Assembly (NCBI GenBank): GCA_965223905.1
Contig: CBDCXV010000002.1
Location: 512,001 to 576,000 of the forward strand
Direction: 5' to 3'
From: Candidatus Latescibacterota bacterium
Lineage (GTDB): Bacteria > Latescibacterota > UBA2968 > UBA8231
Length of the DNA: 64,000 bases
In this document: in pieces, positions 1-42,888 of the stretch
Numbering within the stretch: the stretch's first letter is position 1
Layout: every line of letters begins with the position of its first letter
Position numbers and translations under genes: made by a program
The notes under the pieces: generated by a model
The model's database searches: none
Told to the model about the DNA's origin: nothing
Seen by the model: the letters and a program-made list of their open reading frames with translations, nothing else

Positions 1-1
1 C

Positions 2-2769
<2,768 letters not shown>

Positions 2770-2773
<4 letters not shown>

Positions 2774-3498
2774 CCGGAAGCCTGGAAACTTCGGAGATCG
2801 CCTGGGGGGATTCGCGGCTGACCTATGCCATCCGGCGTAGCGCCCGGCGGAAGAAGACCGTGGCAGTGACGGTGGATCCGGCCGGCGGGGTGTTGCTGGT
2901 GGCCCCGGAGCAGATCAGCACCAGCCGACTGGATGCGATGGTCCGGCGGAAGGCACCGTGGATCGTGAAGCGGCTCCGGGGGGTGGAGTCGGGGGATCCT
3001 CCTCCGCCGCGGGAGTTCGTCAGCGGGGAGAGCGTGATGTACCTGGGACGGCACTACCGGCTGAAGGTTGATTCCGGGGGGCCGGGGGAGGCGAAGCTGC
3101 GCGGCGGCTGGCTGCACGTTCCCGCGCCAGCGGGGGAGGGGCAGCGGGATCAGGTGCGAGCGGCGTTGGTCTCGTGGCTGCGGGGGCACGCCGAGGTGCG
3201 GTTGCCGGAACGGGTGGAGATGTGGCGGCCGAAGGTGGGCGTGGAGATGCCCCAGGTGGTGATCTCAGACCAGCAGAAGAGGTGGGGTAGCTGCGACCGC
3301 AGCGGGACCATTCGGCTGAACTGGCGCATCATCCAGGCCCCGATGCGGTTGGTTGACTACGTTGTGGTTCACGAGTTGGTGCATCTGCGGCACCGGGGGC
3401 ACGGCCGGGACTACTGGCAGGCCCTTGGGCGGATTATGCCGGATTATGAGCGCCGGCGGGAGGATCTGCGGCACCGGGGGCTAGGATTCGCGTGGTAG
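2770..3498 (+). CDS. M48/YgjP-like (DUF45) zinc metallopeptidase, commonly found downstream of hsdR
   Basis: ATGA overlap with the hsdR stop; RWGSC motif and DYVVVHELVH (HExxH). Confidence 0.93.
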
Positions 3499-3579
3499 CT
3501 ACCGTGTAAGTCCTCCCAGATTTCCTTGGCAAACCCCACTTGCGCACCTCTCTCCCACCCTCCCTTGCGGATGAGGCCT

Positions 3580-4880
3580 CTAACCCATCAGTTCCTCCAT
3601 CATGCGGAATTCTTCCGCAAAACTCCCGCTTTCATCCGCATCGGCCTGCTCCCGAGCCAATTCCATGGCCCTTTCACGATCAACGGACTTCGGAATCAGC
3701 GCCAGAGCATACTTCCGAATATCCACCTCCTCCCGCTCCAGCAGCCGACGAAGGTCGATATAATCCAGCATTACTCCACAGTCCACGAGCCTTTCGATCG
3801 CGTCGCAGGTCTCCCCGACTCCACTATCCCCCTCAACTGCCTCAACAATCGCAGGGAGTACGGATTCCGTTCCCACGGTTCTCACCTTGCCATTCGCACA
3901 GTCGTCCAGATAACCTATTTCGCACTCAACTAGGAATCTGGGGAAGGTAGAGGTCAAGAACCCACTAGCCGTCCCAATAATCGTCTTTAGGCTAGCAACC
4001 GGCTCAATTGAGGCATCGTTCATCGTGACAAGATATGTTGGAATTCGCAACGCACACTGCCGACAGATATCTAGCAGATCCGGATCTCGGAGGGAGGTTC
4101 CGACAAAGATCGCCACATCCACATCCTTGGCAACATTTCGCAATTCTGTAGTCAAGTCAGGATACGGCGGCAAGGTAGTACGCTTTTCTCGCGTTGGAAG
4201 AATCATGGCGCTTCTCATTTTGGGGCCAACATACGATAGGTTATCAACAACCGAAAGGGCAAGATTCCCGTATAGAGGCATGGGGTGCCTTAGCTTGTAC
4301 ACGGCTCCATCGTCGCCCATATACCAGTCTGTTGAACCGTGCACTTTCAACAGTCTCAGCATGCCTTTCTGTGCGACATTCATTCCCCTCCACGTAGCAG
4401 TCTCCATTTCCCCAAACTCATAAAACCCGTCGTCAACCGGAGTCTCAAAACACCTACAGGCAATTTCGATGGCCCTATCGTAATTACTGGTCGCTATACA
4501 CAATTGGTGGTCCCCCATTTTCCTCACGACCACTCCCCAAAGACTTTTGGCGTGTACATCCCTAAGACGTTCACACACATGTTGGACAAACCACTCAGCC
4601 TCCCACCGCATCATCCGACTTGAGTTGAGGAGGTCTTCATCGACGGGGAAACCAAGTTTGCGATGGATGTCTTGCCCTTTCTCCAAACCTTCGACGGTCT
4701 CAATCAGCTCTTCCATGTCGTACTCCGATTGAGACAGCATTTGCTCCAACTTCTCAAGAACTCTTCCGGTCCATTCGAGGTTTGCCAAATGAGCATGGAA
4801 TTCCTCCACCATTCGACGCATTGCGGGAATACCTAGTTCTACCGAAGCACCCGCGCACCGGCAAAAAGCAGTATTTTCAA
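3580..4880 (-). pseudogene. Sir2 (SIR2_2-like) NADase-domain protein with a helical C-terminus, frameshifted near the start
   Basis: TTG at 4880 overlaps the upstream stop (TTGA). Removing a duplicated CG at ~4852 gives MKILLFAGAGASVELGIPAMRRM (GAGAS motif) in frame with ORF 3580..4821, which has TSNYD, LKVHGS and FVGTSLRD. Confidence 0.85.
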
Positions 4881-6580
4881 CTTATTGTCTCCATCAAATA
4901 CTGCCGCCTAATGGGTCCCAGTTTCCCGGTCTTCTTCGGTGACTTTGACAGTATATTTGCGATCTGTTGGGCATGTTCCTTACCATACTCTTTACAGCCA
5001 ATCCACAGTCCAATGTGGCCTTCGTTTCTACGGCAAATGGTCCGTACGATCTCCTTCCCTCCTTCATGGTCAATGTTAATCCAGATCTCGTCGCCAACCG
5101 GGAGGAGTGCTGCCGCACCCTGTCCTAGCCGGACAAGCTGCACGTTCGGCTTGTGGTCAAATACGGTTGCAACAGCTTCGCGCCCAACGACATCATTGGC
5201 GACGGCTTCAACCTGAACTAGTCTTGGAAGGAGCCCCTGGAAGTGATTCACGAGCAAGTCCCCCGTAGACGCACCTACGAAACTGGTTTCCCGGAGGAAT
5301 TGCGGCTCTCGATCAACACCTTGGACTACAAGGTGACCGCTATTCCTAAGCACCCGGACGGCTTGTTGCGTTACTTGGTTCGCTCTTGCTAGATTTAGGG
5401 GCGCAATATAGAGCTCATCCTTTTCGAGCGCCTCTATATCCCGAATAGATACTTCACTGCTTTGTTGACCTGGCTCCAGGAGACGAAATGCTTTTCTGTG
5501 GCGAAACTCCTCATCCCATAGTCTTGCTACCTTTTCGTATGGGCCAGTGCGGGGGACCGCAAGCCATATGGTTACCCAACGGCGGAGAGACCAACTTCGT
5601 GTTGTCTCATCGCTTAGCACTTAGCGTACGCATTCAATCGCACGCTCAAGTACAGCAGGGTGATAAGATCTCAACACAGGTTCGAGTTCAGCCTGTAAGC
5701 TGTCGCCTACGAATCCCTCTCGATTGAGTTTGGGCCGAAAGTGCTTGGGATCAACATGAATTGCACCTTCTATCGCCCAGAGTTGCTTTATGGCAACGGA
5801 GGCAACGAATACACCGCGATAGAGGATGTCGACATGAGCAGAGCCGTCGAAACTGTCCCAAGAATTGAATAATACGGGTGGACCAACATGAGCAGTTTGT
5901 ATCCAATCTGGCGTCAACACTGAAATAGGCCTTATTTCTCTGCTGATTCCGCCTTGGTCGATTTGTTTTCCTCCAGGGTCCTCCGTTGCCGTTAGTCCCT
6001 CCACGTCGCGAATCCAATGTGGGAATTTTTCCACTATCTGTTCAAAGGCCGACTCTTTGTCCACGAACAATATCAGATCCGTTCCTTGTTCTTTCCTACG
6101 AGGCTCAAGGGAAATCGCTTTGGTCGTTGCGTCCAACATGCCCCGGTTGAACTCCAAGCCCAAGGACTCGTTACCCGGCTTCAGAGTAAAGAGCTGGAAT
6201 TGTTCGCAAACTAGGAAGTAACTCAGGACCCCGATCCCAAACTCACCCACGGCGTTGTATTCGCCCTCCGCGGCTTTCGCTGCGACCCTAGACGCAGAGG
6301 CCCCAATTCGAGAGAAGAGTTCCACCATCTGATCTCTCCCCATGCCATCGCCATTGTCCGAGATAGTTACAGTGCGTGATTGGCGATCAAAGACTACTGA
6401 AATCTGGGGATTGACCGATGGATCTGTGGCTTGCCTACGACCCACCGCGTCAATGGAGTTCAGAATCGCCTCCCGTATTGATGCGTCCACGCTCGAATAG
6501 AAGGTTTCTCCAGTAAAGAGCTCCAGGATCGACTCCTGGTCGATAGTAAACCTTGGCGGCCAATCCGTGGTAGCATTCAT
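4877..6580 (-). pseudogene. Hsp90/GHKL-type ATPase (~567 aa) interrupted by one in-frame TAA
   Basis: GHKL boxes REAILNSIDA, DNGDGM, GEFGIG, QGT. ORFs 5621..6580 and 4877..5620 are contiguous in the same frame across TAA 5621-5623 (IECVR*VLSDE). Confidence 0.85.
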
Positions 6581-6721
6581 GTAATGACTCCTGAGGGCAT
6601 TGGCCCCTCTATCGAGTTCGTTAGGCGAAATGTCCGGTAGGCCGTTTTTTCCAGCCGTATGACGCTTGGGGCTTCAGACCGGCTCAGGACCATTCTCCCC
6701 CCTACCTCCACCTGCCAACCC

Positions 6722-7330
6722 TCACCCATACACCACCTCCACCAACGCCCGCATATACCCGATCGCATACGCCTTCCCATGCAACGCCCCATATACCGGC
6801 CCAAAGGACGGGGTGTGGACTATAAGGTACGGTCCGTTGAATCCGTTGTCCCCGGTAGACCTCCATTTCCGGCCGCAAGTCCACCTCGCCCTCGGCGATG
6901 AAGACCTCGGGGAACCGCCGCAACTGGCCCCCGACGTTGCGGAAGTGTACCCAGGCTATCTGTCTTTGAGGCCATCTTTGCGATGGCGTCGTAGACCTTC
7001 TCCGGTCCCAGCAGCTCGGTCATGCAGCCCTGGCAAAAGAGCATTCAGCTGGTGTCGATCGGGGTGACTTGAAGAAGATTCGGCGGAACTGCACCAGGGA
7101 GGAACAGATCTGCGCCACGCCGGGAAGGGGGCTGGGGCATCGGCGGGTCGTCCGGGTGCAGGGCAATTCGCACGCCCGCTTTCTCGGGCGCGGGGACCGC
7201 AGCTGCCAGGAAGCGCTCCATGCGCTTCCACATCCGGGCCTCGTCCACGGGGGAATCGTGGGGCTCGGGCCGGTTCCAAGGGGCGGTTTTGAAGGTGGCT
7301 GATCCCCTTGGTACATTCCGCGTGAATCCC
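6722..7330 (-). pseudogene. uxuA: Mannonate dehydratase remnant, copy 1
   Basis: Fragments in shifting frames: EKAGVRIALHPDDPP, LFCQGCMTE, FPEVFIAEGEVDL, NGFNGPYLIVHTP, GKAYAIGYMRALVEVVYG*. Confidence 0.8.
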
Positions 7331-7457
7331 CGACTCCAAAGGGACACCTTTCTTACGGGACTGCTCACCTTCGACAGAATGCGTATCTGAGCAGCGGGGC
7401 AGAGGATCCTTCCCTTTGCCCTCCCCACTCTCGTCGTCTTAGGCCAAGCGCGCGCCC

Positions 7458-7993
7458 ATGGACTTCTATGAGGCCGCCGCAGACCTCTACGACCACACCT
7501 TCGGACGGGCCGAGTTGGAGGGCGAGCGCGGTGACGTGGCTTTCTATGTACAGGAGGCTCGGCAGGCCAGGTTTTCGCCGGTCCTGGAGCTGGCCTGCGG
7601 CACCGGGCGGGTCCTGATCCCGATCGCCCATGCCGGGGTGCCGGTGGTGGGCTTGGACAGCTCGCCGGTGATGCTCTCGGCGGCCCGGAAGAAGGTCGCC
7701 CGGCTCCGGGAAGCGACGCGACAGCGCATCGAGCTGGTCGCCCTCGTCATCATTCCCTTCCGCTCTTTCCTGCACCTGATGACCCCGGCCGACCAGCGCC
7801 GGGCCCTGGGCCGGATCCGCGACCACCTGACCGAAGACGGCCGCCTCGTGTTCAACATCTTCGACCCGCGGCTGGACATGATCGCCTCCCATCTCGGGAC
7901 ACCGCGGGCTCGCCGTGGAGGCGCTCTACGGCGGCTTTGACCGCGGGCCCTTCCGCCACGGCGGCGAGCAGGTCTGGGTAGCGCGGAGGGGGC
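7458..7993 (+). pseudogene. Degenerate copy of the SAM-dependent methyltransferase at 8943..9752
   Basis: Near-identical DNA to 8943-9730 but missing ~39 nt (EGDMRSF...) and ~219 nt, with a frameshift. Confidence 0.88.
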
Positions 7994-8008
7994 ACTTGGT
8001 TGCTGACT

Positions 8009-8464
8009 TCAAGCCCCAGATGGATAGGGGAAGAATGAGTCCGATACCTTTACCTCGAATGAAAGATGGTTTTCTTGCGGAGAGTAGACCATCTTCCAAT
8101 TGCTCAGAATGTCACGGCCCAGGAGCGAAGGATACTGCATGTACTCTTCCAAGGGTTCCAGGAACAGAATGGGCAACTGGTATACGTAGATCTTGCTGCT
8201 GCCGCCAAAACACAGAATGGCCGGTTCTTCATATGCCCTCGCCTCTCCTCCAATTCCAGTGATCCCTTGTGGATTCTCCAGCGCACCATAATCGACTCCG
8301 ATCCTGTGCCCATCGTTCGGAGCTATCGTAGTGACAGAAGCCCCGGTATCGACCAGAAATGATATATCGCTTGGGGGTACGTTGGGAAATTGGCTCTCGA
8401 TCGAGATAACACTCTCAACATAGGGGCTTTGCGATGTGTCTCCATACCTACCGGAGATCGCCAT
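8009..8464 (-). CDS. Retropepsin-like (clan AA) aspartyl protease
   Basis: FLVDTGAS catalytic motif, GIGG flap, SLLGRD; lower GC than flanks. Confidence 0.85.
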   Translation of the reverse strand: MAISGRYGDTSQSPYVESVISIESQFPNVPPSDISFLVDTGASVTTIAPNDGHRIGVDYGALENPQGITGIGGEARAYEEPAILCFGGSSKIYVYQLPILFLEPLEEYMQYPSLLGRDILSNWKMVYSPQENHLSFEVKVSDSFFPYPSGA

Positions 8465-8474
8465 ATTGGCACCA

Positions 8475-8744
8475 TCACAGAATCATGGTACGAGGCTCGG
8501 ACTCGATATACCTGATGATGGCTTGCGCCCGAGAGTACCCTCCTGCATCCAGGGCCTGCAAGACGGACTCGAATGTCGGGCCATGTGCCCGCACCTTTCC
8601 CGAGTGAATCCCGATCCACTCATCCGGGTATTCCTCGATCATGCGAGGATTCTCCGATGACAGCAGGGTCACACTCTCGCGGTAAGCCTCCATTTGCTCG
8701 GCGATCTTGCCAGGATCGCCGATGATTTTCTCAACATCTGCCAT
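8475..8744 (-). CDS. Small DUF5678-like protein, co-oriented with the aspartyl protease
   Basis: YPDEWIGIHSGKVRAHG pattern; RBS AGGGAG; 10 bp gap to the protease. Confidence 0.7.
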   Translation of the reverse strand: MADVEKIIGDPGKIAEQMEAYRESVTLLSSENPRMIEEYPDEWIGIHSGKVRAHGPTFESVLQALDAGGYSRAQAIIRYIESEPRTMIL

Positions 8745-8942
8745 TTGGTGCTCTCCCTTGGTGCGGGGTCTATGGTTTCTGGTTTTCTTCTATTCCAAAC
8801 GAGCGCCGGCCCGAATGTACGGGTCATGGATGACCGGTCAATTCAGCGCCGGATCACAGCGCAACTCGTCGCTGTCATTGTCGTCCTTTTTGCACTCCCC
8901 ACTCTCGTCGCCTTAGGCCAAGCGGGCTCAGCAGCACCGCCC

Positions 8943-9752
8943 ATGGACTTCTACGAGGCCGCCGCGAACCTCTACGACCACACCCTCGGGCGGGCCGAGC
9001 TGGAGGGCGAGCGCGGCGACGTGGCCTTCTATGTACAGGAGGCCCGGCAGGCCGGGTCGCCGGTCCTGGAGCTGGCCTGCGGCACCGGGCGCGTCCTGAT
9101 CCCGATCGCCCATGCCGGGGTGCCGGTGGTGGGCTTGGACAGCTCGCCGGCGATGCTCGCCACGGCCCGGAAGAAGGTCGCCCGGCTCCGCGAAGCGACG
9201 CGGCAGTGCATCGAGCTGGTCGAGGGGGACATGCGCTCCTTCTCCCTCGACCGGCGCTTCGACCTCGTCATCATCCCCTTCCGGTCGTTCCTGCACCTGA
9301 TGACCCCGGCCGACCAGCGCCGGGCCCTGGGCCGCATCCGCGAGCACCTGACCGACGACGGCCGCCTGGTGTTCAACATCTTCGACCCTCGGCTGGACAT
9401 GATCGCTTCCCATCTCGGACACCGCGGCCACCCCCTGGAGAAAGAGAGCGAGTTCACCCATCCGGAAACGGGGCGGCAGGTGGTCGAATGGGTGAGGCGC
9501 CGCTACGACGCGGCGAACCAGACGATCGACGAGGAGCGGATCCTCGAGGAGCTGGACGGCGGACAGGTCGTTTCCAGGACCCCTGCGACGCTCGCCCTGC
9601 GCTGGGTCTACCGCTACGAGATGGAGCACCTCCTGGAGCTTAGCGGCTTCGCCGTGGAGGCGCTCTACGGCGGCTTCGACCGCGGACCCTTCCACCACGG
9701 CGGCGAGCAGGTCTGGGTAGCGCGGAGGGCGTCAAGCCCACCCTGCCGGTGA
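8943..9752 (+). CDS. Class I SAM-dependent methyltransferase (possible longer start at 8826)
   Basis: VLELACGTGR motif I, GLDSS, EGDMR, FDLVIIPF. Confidence 0.9.
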   Translation: MDFYEAAANLYDHTLGRAELEGERGDVAFYVQEARQAGSPVLELACGTGRVLIPIAHAGVPVVGLDSSPAMLATARKKVARLREATRQCIELVEGDMRSFSLDRRFDLVIIPFRSFLHLMTPADQRRALGRIREHLTDDGRLVFNIFDPRLDMIASHLGHRGHPLEKESEFTHPETGRQVVEWVRRRYDAANQTIDEERILEELDGGQVVSRTPATLALRWVYRYEMEHLLELSGFAVEALYGGFDRGPFHHGGEQVWVARRASSPPCR

Positions 9753-9769
9753 ACTGACCTCTCCCATCG

Positions 9770-9990
9770 CATCAAGGTCGGCTAAGGGGCCGCCTATTTC
9801 GGCTTGGCGGCCGTGGAGTCGATGGTGCAGATCTACCTGTTCAACTTCAACAAGTCGTCTTCGGGTTGCCGGCGCTCTACACCGGCCTGGCGCTGGCCCT
9901 GGCCATTGTCTGGGATGCCGTCAGGGACCCCATCATTGGGGGAATCTCCGACTGTTCCCCGCTGGGCTGCCGCCACCGGGGCCCCCGCCT
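9770..9990 (+). pseudogene. MFS/GPH-family sugar transporter N-terminal remnant
   Basis: GLALALAIVWDAVRDPIIGGISD resembles the GPH helix-2 motif; frameshifted and truncated. Confidence 0.6.
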
Positions 9991-10031
9991 GCTGGCCGGT
10001 TTCTTCCGTTCTGGACTGGGCGCCCGAAGGA

Positions 10032-10225
10032 CTATCGCTGCCCAACCTCTGGAACCGATAACCTCCGACATATCCGGCGGGCAAGGTGGTTGGCTATTTC
10101 ACCATGGCGAGGAACGGTCTCGACGGCACCAGTATTGGGGTTGCACCACAGCGAATGAGAGCGCCTTCCCGTTTGAGGTAACAACCGTGCCTCCGAAGGT
10201 GGCGAAGCAAACTGCCCCGTTTCAC
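10032..10225 (-). pseudogene. hicA: HicA mRNA-interferase toxin with a 1-nt deletion
   Basis: GTG start overlaps the hicB stop (GTGA). Reads MKRGSLLRHLRRHGCYLKREG, then after a shift at ~10162 SHSLWCNPNTGAVETVPRHGEIANHLARRICRRLSVPEVGQR*. Span is 194 nt, one short of 65 codons. Confidence 0.88.
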
Positions 10226-10437
10226 GGGACAGTGATCATTTCTCGGATGGCGTCAGCCGGCACACCGCGCAACCCCTCCTCCCGACGGTCCTCAAGGATG
10301 AGCGCTACGGCCTCAGCCAGATTCTCGCGTGCTTCCTCCTTGGTTTTGCCCTGACCGTTTGCCCCGGGGATCTCGGGGCAATAGGCGATATGCCATTCCC
10401 CATCCTGCTCGATAATCGCCGTAAACTCGTTTTTCAT
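10222..10437 (-). CDS. hicB: HicB-family antitoxin (short form), copy 1
   Basis: YCPEIPGANGQGKTKEEARENLAEA. Confidence 0.9.
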   Translation of the reverse strand: MKNEFTAIIEQDGEWHIAYCPEIPGANGQGKTKEEARENLAEAVALILEDRREEGLRGVPADAIREMITVP

Positions 10438-10503
10438 TGTGTGTTTCCACCCTCTTTGTCTTGCGTATTGCCTTCGGATGACAGTAGGCTCACCCGCTAA
10501 ATC

Positions 10504-10985
10504 TTAGGAATAATCCTGAGCCCACTCGTCCTTAATACTTAGCGTGCTGCACATTGCAATCCGCATTGCGTTGTTCATCACACGACAACGTTCAAGATTT
10601 CTCTCGATTTCAACCAACTCGGTGAGCAATCCCATACGCCCTTCGGTCGACTCAAGCCCGGAATTACGCTCTAGAAAGAAGCGATGGACCAGATAGTTCC
10701 GCTGATCTAGGGCGGTGGAAAACCCTTCCTCAACAGAATCTTCCTTGATCGTTACACGTTGTCGCACTTTGTTGAGAAGTTGCCCCATGGTCATCTTTTT
10801 GCCAAGGTCATCGATACTTAATGAATCTGAGGCGATCTGTTGTACATTTTCAAGAATCTCGTGAGGCTTTGTTCAAATAGTTGAGAATGCTGGACAGCAG
10901 AGCCAAAGCACGCGAAGACTGCATTGAGTTGCCCTTCTTCAGTCTCCAGTATCTTGAGTGACTCGGTGGTGTATCCGCGTTGCAT
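10504..10985 (-). pseudogene. Putative HEPN-like protein (~160 aa) split by a 1-nt deletion
   Basis: ORFs 10818..11006 and 10504..10794 join via a shift at ~10838 (MYN-x-IASDSLSIDDLGKKMTMGQLL). Carries RNYLVH (Rx4H); lower GC. Confidence 0.65.
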
Positions 10986-11131
10986 ATTATCGATTCCCTT
11001 TTTCATCTTTTAGCATCCTCCAACTCTATTTTGCCACTCTTGGATCCTCGGTGCGTGATCAGGAGCAAGATTGGTCGGTGGGGTTCCAAGGGCATGGCAT
11101 GGACGTAGGCGCCTGACAGCTGCCCAAGGGT

Positions 11132-11768
11132 TCAGGTTTCTGGGGAATTTGGGCAGGAGAGTCCGCAATGTGACCCGAGAATCGAACTGACGACATTGTG
11201 CAGATCTTGAAAGTGGGTGAAATACTCAAAGGTGGCGTTTTGAAGGACGTGGTTGGCGAAATCAGCCTTCCGGTTTTTTGGGAACTCACGTCCCAGCAAC
11301 CTGCCGTCGTTGTCCACCTTGCTGATCGAGATTGGCTCCAAGATCCTCTCGTCATAGGTATTCTCGATGCCGTTGCGGGCGATCACGTTGTCTTGTCGCC
11401 TCCTGAACGCGAACGGTGTGACCTTGGCAGCACCGGGCAGTTCCTTGCGCAAGTTATCCGCCTGGTCCGCGGCGTCACCATCCCACACGATTACAAAGTG
11501 CGTGTTCGTGTTCATCCTTCCGAGCAGCCGGCCGTATGCGAGTAACTGGCTGGCGCTGCTGTGTTGAGAAAGATCTTCGAAAACATGGACATTCTGTGGA
11601 AAACTCAACTGCACCCATTTCTTGAGGTGCCGGGCGTTATGTCCCTCAGTCAGTATAGTCACCTTCGCTTCGTCGTACGCTGCGATCCTTAGTCCCAGGT
11701 CCACCGTTGCGAGGCCTTCTGAAAGTTCGTTGATGGCTTCCGACTTGGTGGTGCGAGCGACGTTGAGG
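11132..11768 (-). pseudogene. TOPRIM-domain C-terminal fragment (OLD-like nuclease), 5' part lost
   Basis: ILTEG...IVWDGD TOPRIM acidic motifs. No start of its own; abuts the second M48 copy. Confidence 0.65.
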
Positions 11769-11769
11769 C

Positions 11770-12313
11770 GGGGTGGATCGTGAAGCGGCTCCGGGGGGTG
11801 GAGTCGGGGGATCCTCCTCCGCCGCGGGAGTTTGTCAGCGGCGAGAGCGTGATGTACCTGGGGCGTCACTACCGACTGAAGGTTGATTCCAGCGGGACTG
11901 GGGAGGCGAAGCTGCGCGGCGGCTGGCTGGACGTGCCGGCGCCGGCGGGGGAGGGGCAGCGGGATCATGTGCGAGCGGCTCTAGTGGGGTGGCTGCGGCG
12001 GCACGCCGCGGAGCGGCTGCCGGAACGGGTGGAGGCGTGGCGGTCTAAGGCCGGGGTGGCGATGCCTCGGGTGGTTATCGCGGACCAGCAGAAGCGGTGG
12101 GGGAGCTGCGACCGCAGCGGGACCATTCGGCTGAACTGGCGGATCATCCAGGCCCCGATGCGTCTGGTGGACTACGTGGTCGTCCACGAGCTGGTACACC
12201 TGCGCCATCGGGGCCACGACCGCGACTACTGGCAGGCGCTCGGGCGGATCATGCCGGACTATGAGCGCCGCCGCGAGGATCTGCGGCAACGGGGGGTGGG
12301 GTTGGCGTGGTAG
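11770..12313 (+). pseudogene. 5'-truncated second copy of the M48 metallopeptidase
   Basis: Matches 2958-3498. About the first 60 nt are identical, then many substitutions. Retains HELVH; lacks the N-terminal ~63 aa. Confidence 0.9.
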
Positions 12314-12578
12314 CGTCGTCGAGGGTGAGGGCCCGGTAGTTGGCGGCTAGGTCTGAGCCGCCATAACCATGCGAGGTAAGGTACGAGCTCAAGCCTCGCG
12401 GAAGCCCGAGGGTGCGGTCCGTGCCTCCCCTCTCTCTGTAGCAGGTGGGGGCGGTCGATCTGCGGCAGAGAGTCACAGTGGGTATCCTAGGCTCCGGTGA
12501 AGCCGGGGCGCCCGGTGGTCCTTGCTGGTTAGGGCTGGATGTCGGGAGCTACAGTACGGGGCTATTGGCCTTAGAGGA

Positions 12579-12983
12579 TTACGGCCGTGGCATCCATGAT
12601 GCCGCATTAGCAAGCGCCTGCAAATGCTCATTCACTTTATCGGGATCATTCATATCCGCGCAGGGCAACCGAACATCAGCATGGTAGGGATTGCAGCATG
12701 TGGGGGATGCAACTACGCATCGCCCGTCTTGAGATGCGATTTCCGCTTTCACCACAGCCCATCCCCGGAAGTTCCTGCCTCGCATCCTGTCCCTCTTGTC
12801 AGCGATTGAGGCAACCTCGTCAATCCACGAGTCGCACAAGCGGTCGAACGATACGCCGCCTTCGTCTAACCTAAAATCCCTATGGCGAAAAATCCCCCTC
12901 CTTGCCTTTCTCGCGCTCGAGTCGGAAGCGATACTCCGGCCCAATTTGCAATCCCCGCTGATGTCCTTTGTCACCATGTCCAT
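12579..12983 (-). CDS. Hypothetical protein, third gene of a coupled cassette; possible ADP-ribosyltransferase-like fold
   Basis: 134 aa, overlaps the upstream stop. Pattern R...GVSFDR...NPYHADV. The fold is inference. Confidence 0.6.
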   Translation of the reverse strand: MDMVTKDISGDCKLGRSIASDSSARKARRGIFRHRDFRLDEGGVSFDRLCDSWIDEVASIADKRDRMRGRNFRGWAVVKAEIASQDGRCVVASPTCCNPYHADVRLPCADMNDPDKVNEHLQALANAASWMPRP

Positions 12984-13804
12984 CCATCGGTCATTTCATC
13001 CAGTCTCAACAAAGCCATGCGAAGAAAACCATCGGGCAGTTGGCCCGACTCCTCCGGCGTATAGGATCTGCTACGTTCGGGAATCCCTGGGACATCAACA
13101 AGGCAAAGTGCCCCTCCGTTTGACCTGCATAACAGAATCACTGAACTGCCTCTTCTGTTCGGAAGGCTAATGGCAATCTCTCGATCATGAGTAGTGTATA
13201 TGTCATATTGCCTGGGGAGGATGTCGAACATCTCTCTGAGCAGGCGATCGGCGTTTGTCTTTGCCAAGTCCGAAGGAAGCTCGAAACCTTCTTCTAATGC
13301 GTCCTTGTCGACTTCGTTCAATTCATCCAAGAGTTCCTGGAATCGGCTATCTGTCTCGGAGGGCCTGGAAGACTCCACAAAAGCCCAAATAGGGACAAGC
13401 GGCTTGTTCAAATCGCCATAGACTGTATGTCTGCCTCTACGAGAATTGCAACCTGCGAATGTGCTGTAAGCAGCGCGCCCTACTTCGGGCGTAGAGGAAA
13501 CGTCAAGATAGCCAGAGGAATCTTTCCAAAAAGCAAGCGAGAACTGCTCTCTGCCCTGATCCCAGGCGCTGGTGTGGGGATTATTTCTGAAAAACTGCTC
13601 TTGCCCCTGTCTCCATTTCTCCAATATGGAAAGGTTCTCCAGGAGGACAGCATCGGTCGTTCCAGTTTCCTGATTCTCGTCCCCCTGTTCCCAAGTCGTC
13701 CAGCCAGCAGTGTCAGGATCAGCCATAGGGTTCCGTGGTGCACGGAACAATGCTCGATCCCGTGTTGGTGTCCGGGGCTTAGAAGCGGCTTGAGTCATTT
13801 CCAT
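12971..13804 (-). CDS. Hypothetical protein, middle gene of the cassette
   Basis: 277 aa lower-GC ORF overlapping both neighbours. Confidence 0.7.
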   Translation of the reverse strand: MEMTQAASKPRTPTRDRALFRAPRNPMADPDTAGWTTWEQGDENQETGTTDAVLLENLSILEKWRQGQEQFFRNNPHTSAWDQGREQFSLAFWKDSSGYLDVSSTPEVGRAAYSTFAGCNSRRGRHTVYGDLNKPLVPIWAFVESSRPSETDSRFQELLDELNEVDKDALEEGFELPSDLAKTNADRLLREMFDILPRQYDIYTTHDREIAISLPNRRGSSVILLCRSNGGALCLVDVPGIPERSRSYTPEESGQLPDGFLRMALLRLDEMTDGWTW

Positions 13805-14451
13805 TGGTCAAAACAATCGATGAAGTCAAAAGTATTCTTCCACACTTCAGCAAATCGACTATTCAAATCCAAGTGGTCGCGGATCTCTTCTGTGTCGAGA
13901 TGGACATTCGTGCTAATGAAGATTTTTGGAGTTTCAAGGTCTTGGAGGCGAGGCTCGATGGTAACGATGAACTTTCTATTTCTATCGTCCCCTGTATAGT
14001 ACATCTTGCATCCACCACCAGAAAGCTCCCAGTCCTTGAAAGACTCTCTCTTAGGAAAGATCCGCGAGGCGATATAGAGGCCGGCCGGCGAGCGTACCTC
14101 ATTAACTTGGGCAGGGGTATACACAACCTCCATGTTGAATCCAATCGCCGTAAGTGGCTGACTTTCGAGGTCGTCGGTATAGGACATTGCCTTTGTGGCG
14201 ACATCTACTAATTGGGCAAGGTCTTCGTCCGAAGATAGATAGTCTCTTTGAACAATCGACCGCTCGCTGGATAAATCCAGCGAGATCCTATGCTTGTTGA
14301 TGATATGATTTCTTGAGCCGCCGGTCACAATGGTGGTCAATTCATCATCAATGGAAAACTGAAACTGCCTTTGTTGCTCCGGTGTATTGAGTAGGTCTAT
14401 CCCCAAAAGCACCATGTTTACCCTTATCACTTCAAATGGAGAACTGTCCAT
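13795..14451 (-). CDS. Hypothetical protein, TIGR04255-like
   Basis: RBS GAAGGA before ATG 14451. VNMVLLG and LTAIGFNME strand pattern is reminiscent of TIGR04255-like proteins. Confidence 0.6.
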   Translation of the reverse strand: MDSSPFEVIRVNMVLLGIDLLNTPEQQRQFQFSIDDELTTIVTGGSRNHIINKHRISLDLSSERSIVQRDYLSSDEDLAQLVDVATKAMSYTDDLESQPLTAIGFNMEVVYTPAQVNEVRSPAGLYIASRIFPKRESFKDWELSGGGCKMYYTGDDRNRKFIVTIEPRLQDLETPKIFISTNVHLDTEEIRDHLDLNSRFAEVWKNTFDFIDCFDQWK

Positions 14452-14857
14452 GATTCCTTCTCCCCTCAATGCTCTGCGTGCGTGGTGGGCCCCTGGCTTG
14501 GGCTCCTCATGGCAGAATCCGGCGCCGGCCCCACTTGCACCAGTGTTCATCCGTAGCCCTGCTATGCCCGCGTGGAACCTATGAGTGCCGATGACGGCCT
14601 GTCAACTCTCAGCCTTGCTCGTTTCGTGCAAGGCTAGTCCTCTCGGGCTCCGTCCTCCCCTCGCCAGGGCCCGCGCTGCGGCCATGCCACAAAGACTTCC
14701 AGAGGTATTTGCCTAAGCAACTCTGATACACATGGGACCACCATGCAAGACTTGGGACATGCCCTTCGCCCAACGAATCCTGGTCCCGCACTCCCCGAAC
14801 CGTCACCGCTGATGAGCTGTACCCCTTCCTCGCCAGTCCTTTGCGTCCCTCTCACCC

Positions 14858-15150
14858 TCACCCGAAAACCACCACCACCACCAGCTCCCGGATATATCCG
14901 ATCGCAAAAGCCTTCCAGGCAGGGGGTCGAACCCCGCCCAAAGGAAGGTGTTTGGTCCATTATGTACGGCCCGTTGAACCCGTTGGCCCGGAGACCTCAA
15001 TCGCCCACTGCATGTCCACCTCGCCCTCGTCGAAGAAGATTTGGGGGAACTGCTCCAGGGTGGAGCAGATCTGGGCAACTCCGGCCAGGGGCTCGGGGAA
15101 TCGGCGTGTCGTCGGGGTGCAGAGCTATCCGCACTCCCGCTTTCTGGCCG
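14858..15150 (-). pseudogene. uxuA: Mannonate dehydratase remnant, copy 2
   Basis: QKAGVRIALHPDDTP, FDEGEVDM, NGFNGPYIMD, KAFAIGYIRELV; homologous to 6722-7330 with an internal deletion. Confidence 0.78.
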
Positions 15151-15196
15151 CGACGGGTGGTGATGAGGTCCGACGACGGTCTATGGTAGAACAATC

Positions 15197-15391
15197 TCAA
15201 ATGGCATCTGCCGGCACACCGCGCAACCCGTCCTCCCGGCGGTCCTCAAGGATGAGCGCTACGGCCTCAGCCAGATTCTCGCGTGCTTCCTCCTTGGTTT
15301 TGCCCTGACCGTTTGCCCCGGGGATCTCGGGGCAGTAGGCGATATGCCATTCCCCGTCCTGCTCGATAATCGCCGTAAACTCGTTTTTCAT
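15197..15391 (-). CDS. hicB: HicB-family antitoxin, copy 2, 3'-clipped with no hicA
   Basis: Near-identical to 10222..10437 including ~45 bp of upstream DNA; stops 7 codons early. Confidence 0.8.
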   Translation of the reverse strand: MKNEFTAIIEQDGEWHIAYCPEIPGANGQGKTKEEARENLAEAVALILEDRREDGLRGVPADAI

Positions 15392-15409
15392 TGTGTGTTT
15401 CCACCCTCT

Positions 15410-15943
15410 TTAGTTTTGCCTATTGCCCTCGGACGGGGTAGGGGTTGGGCTGTTCTGGCGCAATGCGACTTTCACAGCCCCCCAACTGCGTGCCTGCACT
15501 CCCGTCGATATCCCTTCCACCTGTACATGGAAGTACGCCGGCTCGGATTCCACCGGCCCGTCATCGGTATTCTGCACCGTCGTGACCGCCCACAGAGTGT
15601 GCGTGTCGCTGTCCAGGGTAGCGACCACGACCCTGACGACAGGCTCCATAGGGCCGATGATGCCCCACGACACGAGGGCAGTCTTGGGAGAATCCAGCTC
15701 TACCAGGTTGCCCTGTTCATCGAGGCCCACAGTGACCGCTATCTCCCGGTAAATCCGGTATCCGTCCGCTCCCTCCACCGCATTCCAGGTCACGAGGATG
15801 AAGCCGCCCTGGTCGCCCTGGTTCTCCGGCGGGTTGTATGGCACTGCCACCACCGAGTCGGGCGGCGCAGGCAGGGCCAGACCCGCGTTCACGGACAGCA
15901 GCAGGGCAAGTATCGCCAGCGTCACTTTCTTCGCATGTCTCAT
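15410..15943 (-). CDS. Secreted protein with an FN3-like region and C-terminal 'SWGAVK' motif
   Basis: Signal peptide MRHAKKVTLAILALLLSVNAGLA; TWNAVEGADGYRIYR; TGVQARSWGAVK. Confidence 0.75.
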   Translation of the reverse strand: MRHAKKVTLAILALLLSVNAGLALPAPPDSVVAVPYNPPENQGDQGGFILVTWNAVEGADGYRIYREIAVTVGLDEQGNLVELDSPKTALVSWGIIGPMEPVVRVVVATLDSDTHTLWAVTTVQNTDDGPVESEPAYFHVQVEGISTGVQARSWGAVKVALRQNSPTPTPSEGNRQN

Positions 15944-15982
15944 GGGTAGCCTCCTGACGTAAGGGATCTGTATTGAAGAAAC

Positions 15983-16018
15983 AGTTGACAATGGGCCTGT
16001 CAACTCTATTTTATAGAG
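15983..16018. promoter_or_regulatory. Divergent promoter region with two palindromes
   Basis: AGTTGACA-N7-TGTCAACT (15983-16005, TTGACA on both strands) and CTCTA-N5-TAGAG (16004-16018) overlapping a -10-like TATTTT. Confidence 0.55.
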
Positions 16019-16116
16019 AACTCTGCACGAGTTGGGAAAACTCGGCAGCCTTACCAAATGGAAAGGGCCGCCGCCCCCTCGGCTCCCGGGACGGCAGCCG
16101 CGAAAGGAGACTCCCA

Positions 16117-16704: not shown

Positions 16705-17011
16705 GGTCACCTCCGGGGGCCTGGTTCGGCTGGACAAGCTGCTGGAACACCGCAGCCGCCTCGGCGCCTGCGTGCTGCTGGCCGACGTCGACGCCATGAC
16801 TTTCACCAGCCTGAAGCAGCTCCTCCAGGAGACAGACGGCAACCTGGGGGCGCACCTGCGCAAGCTGGAGGACGCCGGCTACCTCGGCGTGACCAAGCGC
16901 TTCGAGAACCGCAGGCCGGTGACCTGGTACCGCCTCACCAAAAAAGGCGCCAAGGCCCTGCAGACTCACCTCGAGGCCCTGCAGACGGTGATCGCCGGCG
17001 CCAGGCTCTGA
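16676..17011 (+). CDS. Winged-helix transcriptional regulator (HTH_34/MarR-like)
   Basis: FTSLKQLLQETDGNLGAHLRKLEDAGY...TWYRLT. Confidence 0.9.
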   Translation: MMKKPSQPAEVTSGGLVRLDKLLEHRSRLGACVLLADVDAMTFTSLKQLLQETDGNLGAHLRKLEDAGYLGVTKRFENRRPVTWYRLTKKGAKALQTHLEALQTVIAGARL

Positions 17012-17012
17012 G

Positions 17013-19229: not shown

Positions 19230-19256
19230 TCTTCATCTTCACCAAAGAGGCCAACT

Positions 19257-42870: not shown

Positions 42871-42888
42871 GGCGATTCCTCCAGTGCC

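Follow-up and report, generated by a model that had tools for sequence, protein, structure and literature searches.

Organization of the locus

The window, i.e. the whole stretch of DNA analysed here, comprises 64,000 nt from a Candidatus Latescibacterota bacterium (GCA_965223905.1, CBDCXV010000002.1, 512,001-576,000, forward strand); 'w' with a number denotes a position within it. Beside a restriction gene it carries, stacked, two diverged and partly decayed versions of one gene neighbourhood. In unit 1 the YgjP 3' end is followed by the SIR2 and GHKL ATPase genes, the longer uxuA stub, the methyltransferase region and hicB, then by a pair of small ORFs and an OLD-like ATPase gene reduced to its 3' third; unit 2 comprises a YgjP' fragment, a three-gene operon, a uxuA stub and hicB. 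The features are:

2..2773, plus strand: hsdR, type I restriction R subunit, left conserved anchor (Pfam SWI2_SNF2, 1.4e-81; T1RH-like_C; HSDR_N); 5' end lost to the window edge
2770..3498, plus: YgjP-like metallopeptidase, full-length, copy 1 (PF01863, 1.1e-59)
3580..4821, minus: SIR2-like protein, cargo 1 (PF13289, 9.5e-8; PADLOC SIR2 models down to 3e-12; GC about 50%)
4877..6580, minus: GHKL/HSP90-like ATPase, cargo 1, disrupted (HATPase_c_3, 3.9e-10, read-through translation)
6719..7317, minus: uxuA remnant 1, C-terminal ~200 codons, 5'-truncated, several frameshifts (UxuA Pfam, 3.9e-9)
7415..7990, plus: class I SAM methyltransferase, decayed copy (Pfam Methyltransf_12/25; alignment to the second copy)
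8009-8464, minus: aspartyl protease, low-GC (Pfam)
8475-8744, minus: DUF5678 protein, low-GC (Pfam)
8889..9752, plus: methyltransferase, apparently intact, with upstream region (Pfam Methyltransf_25, 6.8e-18)
10222..10437, minus: hicB-like gene, copy 1 (HicB_lk_antitox, 1e-4, below cut-off)
10504-10794 and 10818-11006, minus: two small low-GC ORFs between hicB and the ATPase fragment
11132..11770, minus: AAA_15/AAA_21 (OLD/AriA-like) defence ATPase, 3' third, truncated by the junction (97% identical to P0001 residues 407-618)
11771..11774: stacking junction, truncated ATPase gene to YgjP nt 188, where homology breaks
11773..12314, plus: YgjP' copy 2, 5'-truncated, residues about 64-242 plus stop codon (PF01863, 6e-49)
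12579-12983, 12971-13804 and 13795-14550 (or start at 14451), minus: cargo 2, three genes with overlapping ends forming an operon
14852..15170, minus: uxuA remnant 2, shorter, with an internal deletion of about 155-175 bp (alignment to remnant 1); abuts hicB copy 2
15197..15391, minus: hicB-like gene, copy 2 (block C, 15195-15433)
15465..20030: right conserved chromosomal frame, with two unnamed ORF regions, a winged-helix regulator, a TonB-dependent receptor and a TPR protein (Pfam)

Comparison of the window with itself bears out the original prediction that an M48 3' end (here YgjP), cargo, a uxuA remnant and hicB occur twice in one order: all three scaffold elements are present in two copies, in identical order and orientation, and are, as also predicted, homologous but diverged. 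Block A, the YgjP 3' end, pairs 2958-3499 with 11773-12314 (88.0% over 542 ungapped bases, E=0) and in both copies ends exactly at the stop codon. Block B, the uxuA remnant, pairs 6718-6918 with 14854-15053 (75.5%, E 1e-30) and, in a second part, 7071-7184 with 15032-15145 (82%); it is shorter by about 155-175 bp in unit 2, and in unit 1 the site of this deletion is flanked by an imperfect ~22 bp repeat. Block C, hicB with ~40 bp upstream, pairs 10241-10478 with 15195-15433 (95.0%, E 7e-104), the HicB-like calls being weak at 22-23 bits against a cut-off of 27. The cargo, described beforehand as of lower GC and entirely different in the two units, does have a GC content of 49-55%, compared with 62-70% for the scaffold, and no similarity between cargo 1 and cargo 2 was found in the self-comparison.

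Much of the material in the slot is decaying, as is evident from a stop codon in an ATPase gene, truncated genes and frameshifts. The cargo 1 ATPase gene is broken by an in-frame TAA at 5621-5623 (confirmed in the sequence); among the 120 matches listed, most of its relatives are single proteins of 566 aa (range 560-680 aa), the best being 87% identical. The uxuA remnant 1 aligns by tblastn, in three frames, with residues 390-592 of the intact uxuA of the related loci L003 and L011, and has 84% nucleotide identity to L003. The two uxuA stubs have a +1 frameshift in common, their later indels being separate.

Within unit 1 there is a third, nested duplication, in which methyltransferase copies at 7415-7990 and 8889-9729 enclose the low-GC aspartyl protease/DUF5678 pair. 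The decayed copy has deletions of 11, 39 and about 200 bp plus one +1 frameshift, and the 8889..9752 copy matches the NCBIfam daptide-type methyltransferase family (1e-36, under the family cut-off). The enclosed segment at 8445-8780 is 93% identical to L003 13696-14031, a piece which in L003 abuts the stop codon of the intact uxuA; the protease/DUF5678 region also has a weak PADLOC PDC-M08B match (2.8e-5). The original prediction had overlooked this duplication, the junction-truncated ATPase gene and the TAA codon in cargo 1.

The two small ORFs at 10504..11006 have no match in Pfam, PADLOC or NCBIfam, their sole match being phrog_12893 (unknown function, 3.5e-7). The cargo 2 genes likewise have no match in Pfam, PADLOC, NCBIfam, PHROGs or PDB sequences. 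In L019 and L020, homologues of two of the three, 37-42% identical, lie directly after YgjP; in L021 only the middle gene has a counterpart. The family of the small gene comprises 655 representative clusters.

The hsdR-YgjP anchor and the stacking junction

The hsdR gene has nucleotide identities of 94% to L001 and 84-92% to the other loci, and the hsdR-YgjP flank is itself a horizontally spread defence module, 80-90% identical in nucleotide sequence across MAGs labelled as different phyla. The two YgjP copies differ at 65 of 541 positions, with 43 of the 65 differences at codon position 3, and 38 codons changed synonymously compared with 18 non-synonymously, a purifying-selection signature being evident in the truncated copy 2. 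The silent divergence between them is about 24% (23.9%), that of the backbone between the window and L001 being only 4-6%. Since the divergence is mostly silent, the units are alleles, as had been proposed, and come from different lineages, with no fresh local duplication.

The divergence is not even along the locus. The first 60 bp of copy 2 (11773-11832) are identical both to copy 1 (2958-3017) and to L001, for which the probability by chance is about 2e-4, and are directly followed by a divergent stretch of 155 bp. A breakpoint in the YgjP site pattern lies at about w3172 (Fisher p=0.0013; matched in 12 of 1000 shuffles), and the identity of copy 1 to L001 drops from 95% to 85% along 2751-3500. 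Crossovers thus do occur within the 3' half of YgjP. The hicB copies differ at 8 of 195 nt, and all but one of these differences fall at codon position 3, giving a silent divergence of 10.8% versus 23.9% for YgjP (P=0.006).

The break made by the junction lies at residue 406 of 618 in the ATPase gene and at nt 188 in YgjP. Homology to the 618-aa protein P0001, which has PADLOC matches to ATPase-Toprim_I-B, mad3, HEC-01A, AriA and Old (7e-19 to 6e-12), begins at residue 67 of the ORF, about w11770, and leftward of 11766-11773 the self-comparison found no homology between the copies. Because both the ATPase gene and YgjP are truncated by it, 11772/11773 can be regarded as an illegitimate join. 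The earlier proposal of a single crossover through the M48 3' end is therefore right in placing recombination within YgjP, but such a crossover alone cannot make a joint of two truncated genes.

The slot in related genomes

In the closest MAGs, L001 and L010, homology to the window has the same edges, i.e. w3-3497 and w15465-20030 in the case of L001. The left edge of the slot is the stop codon of YgjP copy 1, where homology to L001, L003, L010 and others stops; the right edge is 15465, and the frame beyond it (15465..20030) is 96.3% identical to L001 14570-19136 and 85.2% identical to L010 12925-17484. The enclosed interval spans 11.97 kb in the window but measures 3.84 kb in L001 and 2.2 kb in L010, its content is not invariant, and the DNA directly after the YgjP stop codon is unrelated across all seven Latescibacterota-type slots. 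Of 26 loci submitted to PADLOC, 14 have ORFs that match defence models at E<=1e-5, among these Dsr1, IetS, bSEFIR, AbiE, PDC-M07A, PDC-M31, HEC-01, PDC-S02, PDC-S20 and others, and the slots of the relatives are mostly filled by defence or toxin-antitoxin genes. These comparisons support the predicted hypervariable defence slot in the interval after YgjP; the cargo of the window, with its own SIR2 protein and OLD/AriA-like ATPase fragment, presumably serves defence as well.

At the locus, uxuA is absent in L001 and L010, the closest chromosomal relatives, and in L003 and L011 it is intact and convergent with YgjP. Thus the remnants are best seen as donor flank brought in with the cargo, not as the resident dead gene on which the slot had been said to be anchored. 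The common +1 frameshift, together with an extra uxuA 3' stub in L003, indicates that a dead uxuA piece has travelled with cargo.

The stacking pattern itself recurs elsewhere, in three independent assemblies. Besides the extra uxuA 3' stub of L003, there is a further hsdR'-YgjP copy, 5'-truncated, in L002 (1.8 kb, 90% identical) and a degraded hsdR'/YgjP' copy in L006; the left edges of the stacks in L002, L003 and L006 are all different, and the right edge coincides with the YgjP stop codon or is no more than 15 bp away from it.

Recombinase genes

Among the ORFs of 60 aa or more in 3499-17000, 83 in all, none matches an integrase, transposase or recombinase Pfam family, a scan of larger ORFs in the rest of the window likewise gave no recombinase family, and a tRNA search found none. 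The window is in this sense free of visible integrases, as predicted. The same is not true of the gene family at large, given the orphan YgjP 3' fragments that lie beside recombinases elsewhere: in L032, L039 and L040 1-1.6 kb from a large serine recombinase and DUF2924 gene, and in L038 near a tyrosine integrase.

Origin of the stacked arrangement

The stack looks like a fossil record of defence-gene swaps, the work of ordinary recombination with no enzyme from a mobile element. The explanation that we favour, and hold to be reasonably likely, is sequential displacement by homologous and illegitimate recombination at an integrase-free defence hotspot. DNA from other lineages bearing hsdR-YgjP would recombine through that conserved module, and the far end of the incoming DNA would be joined without homology, i.e. 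by homology-facilitated illegitimate recombination. After every such event the older cargo would lie further downstream, behind a 3' piece orphaned from the anchor gene, and bits of the donor's neighbouring genes would have been dragged in. At least three layers may be distinguished (unit 2, unit 1 and the nested protease/DUF5678 layer inside unit 1), with unit 2 probably arriving first and unit 1 later. The evidence points to turnover of the slot between w3498 and w15465 by general recombination and decay, with no dedicated machine, and 'cassette exchange system', as the locus had been called, overstates the case. Against the favoured explanation, the donor arrangement, with a full-length ATPase gene, the small ORFs and hicB downstream of YgjP and cargo 1, was not observed, and cargo 2 is at most a candidate for a role in defence. 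The orphan YgjP 3' fragments beside recombinases in other genomes count against it as well. Nor does any single clean event explain the fine mosaic (the 60-bp identity, the divergent 155 bp and the less-diverged hicB), which makes it necessary to invoke additional gene conversion or exchange.

A Campbell-type event, in which a circularised donor fragment with the YgjP 3' end and downstream genes enters by one homologous crossover in the YgjP 3' end to give a direct repeat, is unlikely but accounts for several observations. The topology fits, with a full copy, cargo and a 5'-truncated copy as direct repeats; the breakpoint is inside YgjP, and the 60-bp patch with which copy 2 opens could be repaired heteroduplex beside the crossover. 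However, an illegitimate circularisation joint between two truncated genes would still be needed at 11772/11773, so the event would not be purely homologous, and the predicted reciprocal chimeras map uncleanly onto the site patterns. From sequence alone, this model and the linear one-ended one are inseparable.

All relatives compared are MAGs, with L002 and L003 being chromosome-level records, and the window is therefore probably a metagenome assembly too, which counts against the favoured explanation. It might be that the slot alleles of two coexisting strains were stitched together into a stack present in no cell, and short near-identical stretches (60 bp in YgjP, ~240 bp at hicB) could confuse an assembler. 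We consider this improbable: the junction does not fall inside a shared repeat but links unique ATPase sequence to YgjP nt 188, and must therefore exist in some real molecule; the three other assemblies, two of them chromosome-level, have similar stacks, and a nested duplication of the same style is present inside unit 1.

In E. coli, islands such as e14 and phage 21 insert inside icd and carry a replacement 3' end. The locus resembles these in having the full target gene and then a distant displaced, diverged 3' fragment, and an element of ~8.8 kb (2958-11772) could be imagined to have integrated at a 60-bp att core in YgjP, bringing a replacement 3' end, with its recombinase supplied in trans or lost. 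The identical direct repeats at 2958-3017 and 11773-11832, followed by diverged YgjP, and the recombinases beside YgjP fragments elsewhere would agree with such an origin. It nevertheless seems very doubtful, in that, unlike in icd, the window has no recombinase, the far end is the broken ATPase gene rather than an element terminus, and the cases have no common breakpoint; the YgjP/hsdR breakpoints are at w2958 here, ~w1691 in L002, ~w2597 in L006, ~w3040 in L032/L039/L033, residue 152 in L038 and residue 160 in L040. The supposed element would also hold the same uxuA/hicB scaffold as the unit it displaced. Least credible is an in-place tandem duplication of YgjP to hicB followed by long divergence and cargo replacement in one copy, which would give three blocks in the same order and orientation, but which is at odds with a silent divergence far above that of the backbone and a purifying signature in a truncated copy, with the lack of the duplication in L001 and of the predicted intact ATPase gene after copy 2, and with the strongly differing divergence among the three blocks.

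Relation to known systems

Sequential displacement at a hotspot is, from the published accounts, a process of a known kind (PMC5635113, PMC10250203, PMC5361080). The hotspots reported in PMC5635113 (2017) have conserved flanks with high turnover between them, and the present locus is like them in this, in its lack of recognisable mobile-element genes and in recombination within a flanking gene. It differs from those described there in that one flank (hsdR-YgjP) is itself a horizontally spread defence module, and in that failed or partial replacements are kept, rather than clean double crossovers. The core defence hotspots cDHS1 and cDHS2 of P. aeruginosa are reported to contain many different defence systems within constant flanks, with no mobile gene at a sizeable share of the sites, and lateral transfer by recombination via the conserved flanks was proposed (Johnson et al. 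2023, PMC10250203). The window resembles them in its varied defence genes between fixed flanks, absence of a mobile gene and proposed flank recombination, although flanks and organisms are different, and that study surveyed isolates at the population level, whereas the present one concerns one window with species-representative MAGs and adds the stacking fossils.

An integron-array analogy has also been drawn, in PMC5361080, for type VI secretion system (T6SS) modules. As in integron cassette arrays, new material would enter at a fixed point with older material pushed back. By contrast with integrons, there is no intI-type integrase (none in the 83 interval ORFs), no repeated recombination sites were seen at cassette edges in a search made without a dedicated attC model, and the edges are gene ends and broken genes.

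A further parallel is the sequential displacement described for T6SS effector-immunity modules of Vibrio cholerae (Kirchberger et al. 2017, PMC5361080), where C-terminal displacement at Rhs loci is also cited. In both cases there is a conserved upstream anchor, a module enters, or in the window would enter, by homology at one end and by an illegitimate join at the other, and arrays arise as older modules move downstream together with a 3' end orphaned from the upstream gene. In experiments cited in PMC5361080, homology-facilitated illegitimate recombination was orders of magnitude rarer than ordinary recombination, which counts against the favoured explanation. The anchor, a toxin gene in the V. 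cholerae T6SS, is here an accessory gene of a restriction system, and whereas the displaced immunity genes are described as staying useful and being kept by selection (PMC5361080), much of the displaced and incoming material in the window decays.

Repeated blocks and the boundaries of the slot

Gapped self-comparison of the window, together with a repeat finder, reveals three blocks that are each present twice, with order and orientation kept; E-values of 1e-30 to 0 exclude a chance origin.

Blocks present in both units, with window positions and nucleotide identity
Block A, last 542 bp of the gene for a YgjP-like metallopeptidase: 2958-3499 and 11773-12314, 88.0%, ungapped
Block B, uxuA remnant: 6718-6918 and 14854-15053, 75.5%; 7071-7184 and 15032-15145, 82%
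Block C, hicB-like gene with about 40 bp upstream: 10241-10478 and 15195-15433, 95.0%

The cargo between blocks A and B has a GC content of 49-55% (vs 62-70%) and, by self-comparison, cargo 1 (a SIR2 gene and a GHKL ATPase gene) is unrelated to cargo 2 (12579-14550), so that the same-order repetition of a scaffold around unrelated, low-GC cargo, as put forward in the original prediction, is confirmed by self-comparison, the repeat finder and base composition alike. In each copy, block A terminates precisely with the YgjP stop codon, and block B starts within a few bases of the uxuA stop; the slot is thus the space between two convergent gene ends. After hicB copy 2, just 31 bp separate the repeat from the conserved chromosomal frame. 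This architecture, and its boundaries, can be read directly from the window as assembled.

The HsdR subunit of a type I restriction-modification system is present (Pfam SWI2_SNF2, 1.4e-81), though hsdR runs off the 5' edge of the window and HsdM and HsdS lie outside it. The YgjP-like assignment is strong for both the full and the truncated copy (Pfam, 1.1e-59 and 6e-49), and the UxuA piece is also matched (3.9e-9). The HicB-like matches are weak, i.e. 22-23 bits versus a curated cut-off of 27, and none of the 83 ORFs of at least 60 aa in window 3499-17000 matches a HicA toxin.

Relative to uxuA remnant 1, remnant 2 has a deletion of approximately 155-175 bp, the ends of which are ambiguous, as the two repeats concerned (D6 and D9) overlap. 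An imperfect direct repeat of approximately 22 bp within remnant 1 (6897-6918 and 7071-7092) flanks exactly the segment absent from remnant 2, which would fit a microhomology-mediated origin of the deletion.

No tRNA or tmRNA gene is present in the whole window, and no Rfam family matches positions 1-22000 at gathering thresholds. Pattern scans of 3400-15600 for promoters and terminators returned fewer sites than in shuffles, so are uninformative. Distant blastn searches of plasmid and phage collections gave no match for 3499-11498 or 10479-15464.

Conserved frame and variable content in relatives

Species-representative genomes were scanned once with YgjP, yielding 45 loci, all from MAGs; the window's own genome was absent and the best match was 91% identical at the protein level. 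Two of these loci, L001 and L010, both labelled Latescibacterota, carry the whole chromosomal frame, with hsdR-YgjP on the left and r235/r270/TonB/TPR on the right, and edges at w3497/3498 and w15465 (w denoting window positions). The window and L001 are 94.0% identical over w3-3497 and 96.3% identical over w15465-20030, and the edges in L010 are identical. The enclosed interval, by contrast, measures 11.97 kb in the window; in L001 it is 3.84 kb and contains a ParA-like gene interrupted by a DDE transposase, and in L010 it is 2.2 kb and holds a DUF7689 gene. Directly after the YgjP stop, there is no nucleotide similarity among seven Latescibacterota-type slots (window units 1 and 2, L001, L002, L003, L010 and L011). 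Within a Vicinamibacterales group of loci with a common distal frame, the interval is approximately 47 bp in L015 compared with approximately 2.08 kb in L019 and L020. This catalogue of YgjP-side cargo, in which content and length differ between fixed edges, upholds the proposal of a variable slot.

The same comparison speaks against uxuA as a resident dead anchor. Neither uxuA nor hicB was found in the L001 or L010 interval, and an intact uxuA gene, convergent with YgjP, is present in L003 (Latescibacterota) and L011 (labelled Gemmatimonadaceae), with Pfam UxuA matches of 8.7e-37 and 4e-36; the cargo between YgjP and uxuA differs between these two loci. L003 has, in addition, a 190-bp uxuA 3' stub, beside which lie a truncated ATPase gene, aligning at its 3' end with w11129-11227, and a DUF5678 gene that shares 93% identity with the one in the window. 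The uxuA remnants are, to judge from these comparisons, probably a hitchhiking donor flank.

Another style of repeat-bounded cargo is seen in L014 (and also in L016), where a 181-bp direct repeat (10743-10923 and 14150-14330, 96% identical), starting approximately 30 bp past the YgjP stop, brackets approximately 3.2 kb with a DUF222-HNH gene, just upstream of AbiEii.

The 11772/11773 junction and the mode of stacking

Residues 67-278 of the ORF at 11132-11968 are 97-98% identical to residues 407-618 of P0001, a full-length, 618-residue AAA_15/AAA_21 ATPase, which matches the PADLOC models ATPase-Toprim_I-B, mad3, HEC-01A, AriA and Old. The ATPase homology begins at approximately w11770, the gene being cut at residue 406 of 618, and the second YgjP copy starts at nucleotide 188 of the gene; at 11772/11773, the final third of a gene for a defence ATPase is therefore linked directly to YgjP, with both genes broken. 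The junction, as assembled, is an illegitimate join, made without homology, which tells against stacking by a purely homologous single crossover. The possibility that the ORF at 11132-11968 is a hidden integrase was considered and rejected, since it is the tail of the ATPase (97% identity to the C-terminal part of P0001). The fragment has no match among PDB sequences at E<=1, and a relaxed Pfam scan of the ORFs lacking an assignment (E<=1) gave nothing useful save for Walker-A-level AAA matches on the truncated ATPase of L003.

We propose that the slot is a defence hotspot that would be maintained by general recombination. DNA arriving from lineages with the same hsdR-YgjP module would pair with the resident copy, and a clean double crossover would swap the cargo and leave no trace. 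Where homology is available at one end alone, the other end would be joined illegitimately; the older module would then be displaced downstream with an orphaned 3' fragment of the anchor at its head, and the donor flank, here the uxuA stub and ATPase tail, would be dragged in. The truncated YgjP' at 11773-12314 does head cargo 2, and is an orphaned 3' anchor fragment of the type that a displacement array is expected to contain. We infer this mechanism, and with it the arrival of unit 1 after unit 2, from the final arrangement. Campbell-type integration of a circularised fragment would produce a map identical to that of one-ended joining, and the two cannot be separated.

The kind of process is already known. 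Integrase-free hotspots in which recombination takes place at the flanking core genes have been described (PMC5635113), and so have core defence hotspots that hold many different systems between constant flanks, with 29% and 47% of sites being without a mobile gene (PMC10250203). [quoted passage not shown] The window slot resembles the integrase-free hotspots in its conserved flanks, variable content, defence matches and lack of an integrase, and resembles a sequential displacement array in that an orphaned YgjP' fragment heads the downstream module and one junction is without homology. In the literature searched, on YgjP with type I restriction and on defence genes embedded in type I restriction-modification loci, we did not find this particular hotspot described. 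Of the earlier interpretation, the variable slot, the stacked alleles and the lack of an integrase in the window are retained; the purely homologous crossover and the resident uxuA anchor are not, and neither is the term cassette exchange system, as a process rather than a system is involved. As assembled, the locus would appear to be a well-preserved new example of this known kind of process.

Recurrence of stacks and recombinase-linked YgjP fragments

Self-comparison of all the loci revealed three further stacks.

Stacks in loci from relatives
L002, second 5'-truncated hsdR'-YgjP copy: 8922-10732 and 17730-19542, 89.8% identical, starting at approximately w1691
L006, degraded hsdR'/YgjP' copy: 94-96% identical, starting at approximately w2597
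L003: uxuA stub

The window shares with L002 and L006 a repeat that ends at the YgjP stop, or no more than 15 bp away from it. The left edge is different each time, a pattern characteristic of a conserved anchor combined with a second breakpoint at random.

Integrase, transposase and recombinase families, including Phage_integrase-type (intI) proteins, are matched by none of the 83 ORFs of at least 60 aa in window 3499-17000, and elsewhere in the window the large ORFs are chromosomal genes of an ordinary kind, in agreement with the original prediction that no integrase or transposase is present. DDE or IS1595 transposases do occur in the slots of L001 and L002, so the absence of such enzymes is not general among relatives. 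The slots of these two loci contain a related DDE transposase element (L001, 11332-12549; L002, 13107-13937), 77% identical over 1.4 kb.

A site-specific origin of the window stack has some attraction, as orphan YgjP 3' fragments are present in five loci, in four of which a recombinase is nearby. In L032 (12046-14335), L039 (11820-14118) and L040 (11595-13833), two of these loci being in one genome, YgjP' lies 1-1.6 kb from a large serine recombinase gene and a DUF2924 gene; in L038 (6914-8113), it is near a tyrosine integrase gene; and in L033, it is fused behind hsdS. L032 and L039 also have, upstream of the fragment, ORFs whose locus coordinates are the same, which suggests a multi-copy element carrying a piece of YgjP. 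The 60 bp that are identical in both YgjP copies of the window might likewise be taken for a recombination site, though they are the start of the 542-bp homology and are also identical in L001. Set against this, there is no recombinase in 2958-11772, the gene at the far end is the truncated ATPase gene, and a common insertion point is lacking: over the window and eight loci there are six distinct fragment start points, namely w2958 in the window, approximately w1691 in L002, approximately w2597 in L006, approximately w3040 in L032/L039 and, independently, L033, and residues 152 and 160 in L038 and L040, respectively. Because the fragment start points are unlike that of the window, and because no recombinase is present in it, we retain a site-specific origin as a minor rival only. 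The exception is L032/L039 (approximately 10040) and L033 (approximately 10043), which begin within a few bases of each other, at approximately w3040, in different contexts; this coincidence could reflect a breakage hotspot or common descent.

Divergence of the two units

The YgjP copies differ at 65 of 541 positions, with 14, 8 and 43 differences at codon positions 1, 2 and 3, respectively, corresponding to 38 synonymous and 18 non-synonymous codon changes. Such a bias to position 3 is unexpected for a truncated, dead copy diverging in place, which argues that most of the divergence arose in separate genomes, while both copies worked. The copies have diverged by approximately 24% at silent sites, compared with an overall difference of 4-6% between the window and L001 backbones, so the alleles are older than, or foreign to, the species-level lineage. 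The uxuA stubs have a common +1 insertion relative to the intact genes, and share several substitutions that are also found in the stub of L003, other indels being private to one unit; the stub had thus been inactivated before the units diverged from their common ancestor, and has travelled with the cargo. The proposal that the units are diverged alleles is therefore substantiated by the silent-site bias and by divergence beyond that of the backbone. A plain tandem duplication in place is contradicted by these same observations, and would in addition be expected to leave an intact ATPase gene after copy 2, where there is none. An integron is unlikely, no Phage_integrase-type match being present among the 83 ORFs and generic repeat finding having revealed no repeated recombination sites at the cassette edges.

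There is also evidence for exchange inside the anchor. The identity of copy 1 to L001 drops from 95-96% to 85% across 2751-3500. When sites at which only one of the window YgjP copies agrees with L001 were considered, the best split was at approximately w3172 (Fisher p 0.0013; equalled by 12 of 1000 shuffles), copy 1 being nearer to L001 before it (14 sites vs 3) and copy 2 after it (29 vs 15), a pattern that gives no polarity for the order of arrival. On the sequences compared, this breakpoint and the drop in identity show recombination in YgjP, though not such as can be assigned to the stacking event itself. The first 60 bp of copy 2, i.e. the start of the 542-bp homology, are identical to copy 1 and L001, whereas other relatives are 67-82% identical there (chance p approximately 2e-4). 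The hicB copies differ at 8 of 195 nt, 7 of these at codon position 3, and have less silent divergence than YgjP (P=0.006). The 60-bp patch, site patterns and lower hicB divergence imply repeated exchange, or else gene conversion between the copies, and are not reducible to a single event.

Nested duplication and broken genes within unit 1

Unit 1 contains a nested third duplication, similar in style, which was not part of the original prediction.

Components of the nested duplication
7415-7990: decayed methyltransferase copy, with deletions of 11, 39 and approximately 200 bp and a +1 frameshift
8009-8744: low-GC aspartyl-protease/DUF5678 pair, between the two methyltransferase copies
8889-9752: apparently intact methyltransferase copy

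The pair at 8009-8744 encodes a retropepsin-like aspartyl protease, with a weak match to PADLOC PDC-M08B, and a DUF5678 protein; the DUF5678 part is 93% identical to L003 13696-14031, which there abuts the uxuA stop. The pair may be a small mobile two-gene module.

In cargo 1, the GHKL/HSP90-like ATPase gene (4877-6580) has an in-frame TAA at 5621-5623, while most of its relatives, among the 120 listed, are single proteins of 566 aa (range 560-680 aa); the gene is therefore a pseudogene or, less likely, contains a sequencing error.

Defence-model matches in the slot

The window itself contributes the SIR2 protein of cargo 1, which matches PADLOC models, and the OLD-like ATPase fragment. In the relatives, ORFs of 14 of the 26 loci submitted match PADLOC defence models at E<=1e-5, which is a raw count rather than one compared with a genome background. 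L007, L009, L021, L022, L026 and L035 were left out of this count, and L016 was excluded because it is nearly the same as L014.

Best PADLOC models in slots of relatives
L002: bSEFIR
L003: HEC-01A, weak, on a fragment
L005: IetS
L006 and L014: AbiEii
L011: Dsr1
L013: PDC-M07A and PDC-M31A/B
L018: HEC-01A/B
L023: AbiEi and AbiEii
L025 and L030: PDC-S02
L028 and L042: Aga-type, weak
L031: PDC-S20

PIN/Phd, Mrr, HNH, Schlafen-AlbA_2 and KAP domains are also found by Pfam in slots of relatives. Some slots (L007, L009 and L026) are filled by ordinary metabolic genes, as assigned by Pfam.

The cargo 2 operon

Cargo 2 consists of three overlapping ORFs (12579-14550), which have no match in Pfam, PADLOC, NCBIfam or PHROGs, and none among PDB sequences at E<=1. 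The small protein (c2_134, 12579-12983) belongs to an unannotated family with 655 representative clusters at E<=1e-3 in an exhaustive profile search, though a word-index homology search recovered only the protein itself. In an alignment of 50 sequences F37, S45, R48, H101 and W130 are invariant, and no aligned member has a Pfam domain (0 of 50). Its predicted fold (pLDDT 95.7) matches no solved structure at E<=0.001 in a fold search; Tpt1-type (ADP-ribosyltransferase-like) chains were returned at a probability of 0.5-0.66 and a TM-score of approximately 0.4, and we treat this resemblance of a model as a weak lead, from which no function is named. Atlas look-alikes of two cargo 2 proteins were only unnamed clusters at 0.90-0.91, where recognition is below the stated level, and no evidence is drawn from them.

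The approximately 2.08-kb insert in L019 and L020 encodes homologues, 37-42% identical, of two of the three cargo 2 proteins. The similarity of c2_251, the product of the gene at 13795-14550, to that of the first gene of the L020 cassette is not significant (E=0.047), so only two of the three genes are demonstrably conserved. The protein P0121 is a fragment identical to cargo 2. An L021 ORF taken at one stage for a c2_134 homologue proved to be a spurious arginine-rich frame. In view of its recurrent place immediately after YgjP, the small protein is a candidate defence or toxin module, and the operon as a whole may be an undescribed defence or toxin system.

Wider significance

The locus provides a sequence-level snapshot of a defence island that would have been built and rebuilt without a mobile-element enzyme, in an uncultured phylum without genetics. 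The broken genes at its joints reveal recombination steps that population surveys of clean alleles cannot. Searches of environmental genomes for new defence genes can, in practice, be anchored on the stop codon of restriction-modification-linked YgjP genes, and the cargo 2 operon, with its three genes, is one concrete candidate.

Identity of hsdR-YgjP is approximately 80-90% at the nucleotide level among MAGs labelled Latescibacterota, Vicinamibacterales, Gemmatimonadaceae and others, and a related two-gene cargo 2 core lies directly after the YgjP stop in two phyla. A bolder reading, which we consider rather unlikely, is that hsdR-YgjP is a portable homology handle that spreads across phyla and enables adjacent defence cassettes to pass from one phylum to another through ordinary recombination, stacks being failed or one-ended attempts; were it true, restriction systems would not only limit gene flow at their own borders but also promote it. 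The hsdR-YgjP segment (window 1-3499) is 83-85% identical at the nucleotide level, over 1.2-3.5 kb, to L004, L005, L006, L008 and L011, from MAGs labelled Vicinamibacterales and Gemmatimonadaceae, and the 5' 2.5 kb of hsdR is 82-92% identical to these in sliding windows. Such cross-phylum identity suggests either that the module has recently moved from one phylum to another or that bins are wrongly labelled.

Other features of the window

Two large paralogous genes encoding Calx-beta domains (42639-48201 and 55397-58714) are 70% identical over 1.5 kb and 82% identical over 1.8 kb. Between them, 48531-52553 encodes a 1340-aa protein with WD40 beta-propeller repeats and bacterial Ig-like (Big_1) domains, with internal DNA repeats at 49020-50192.
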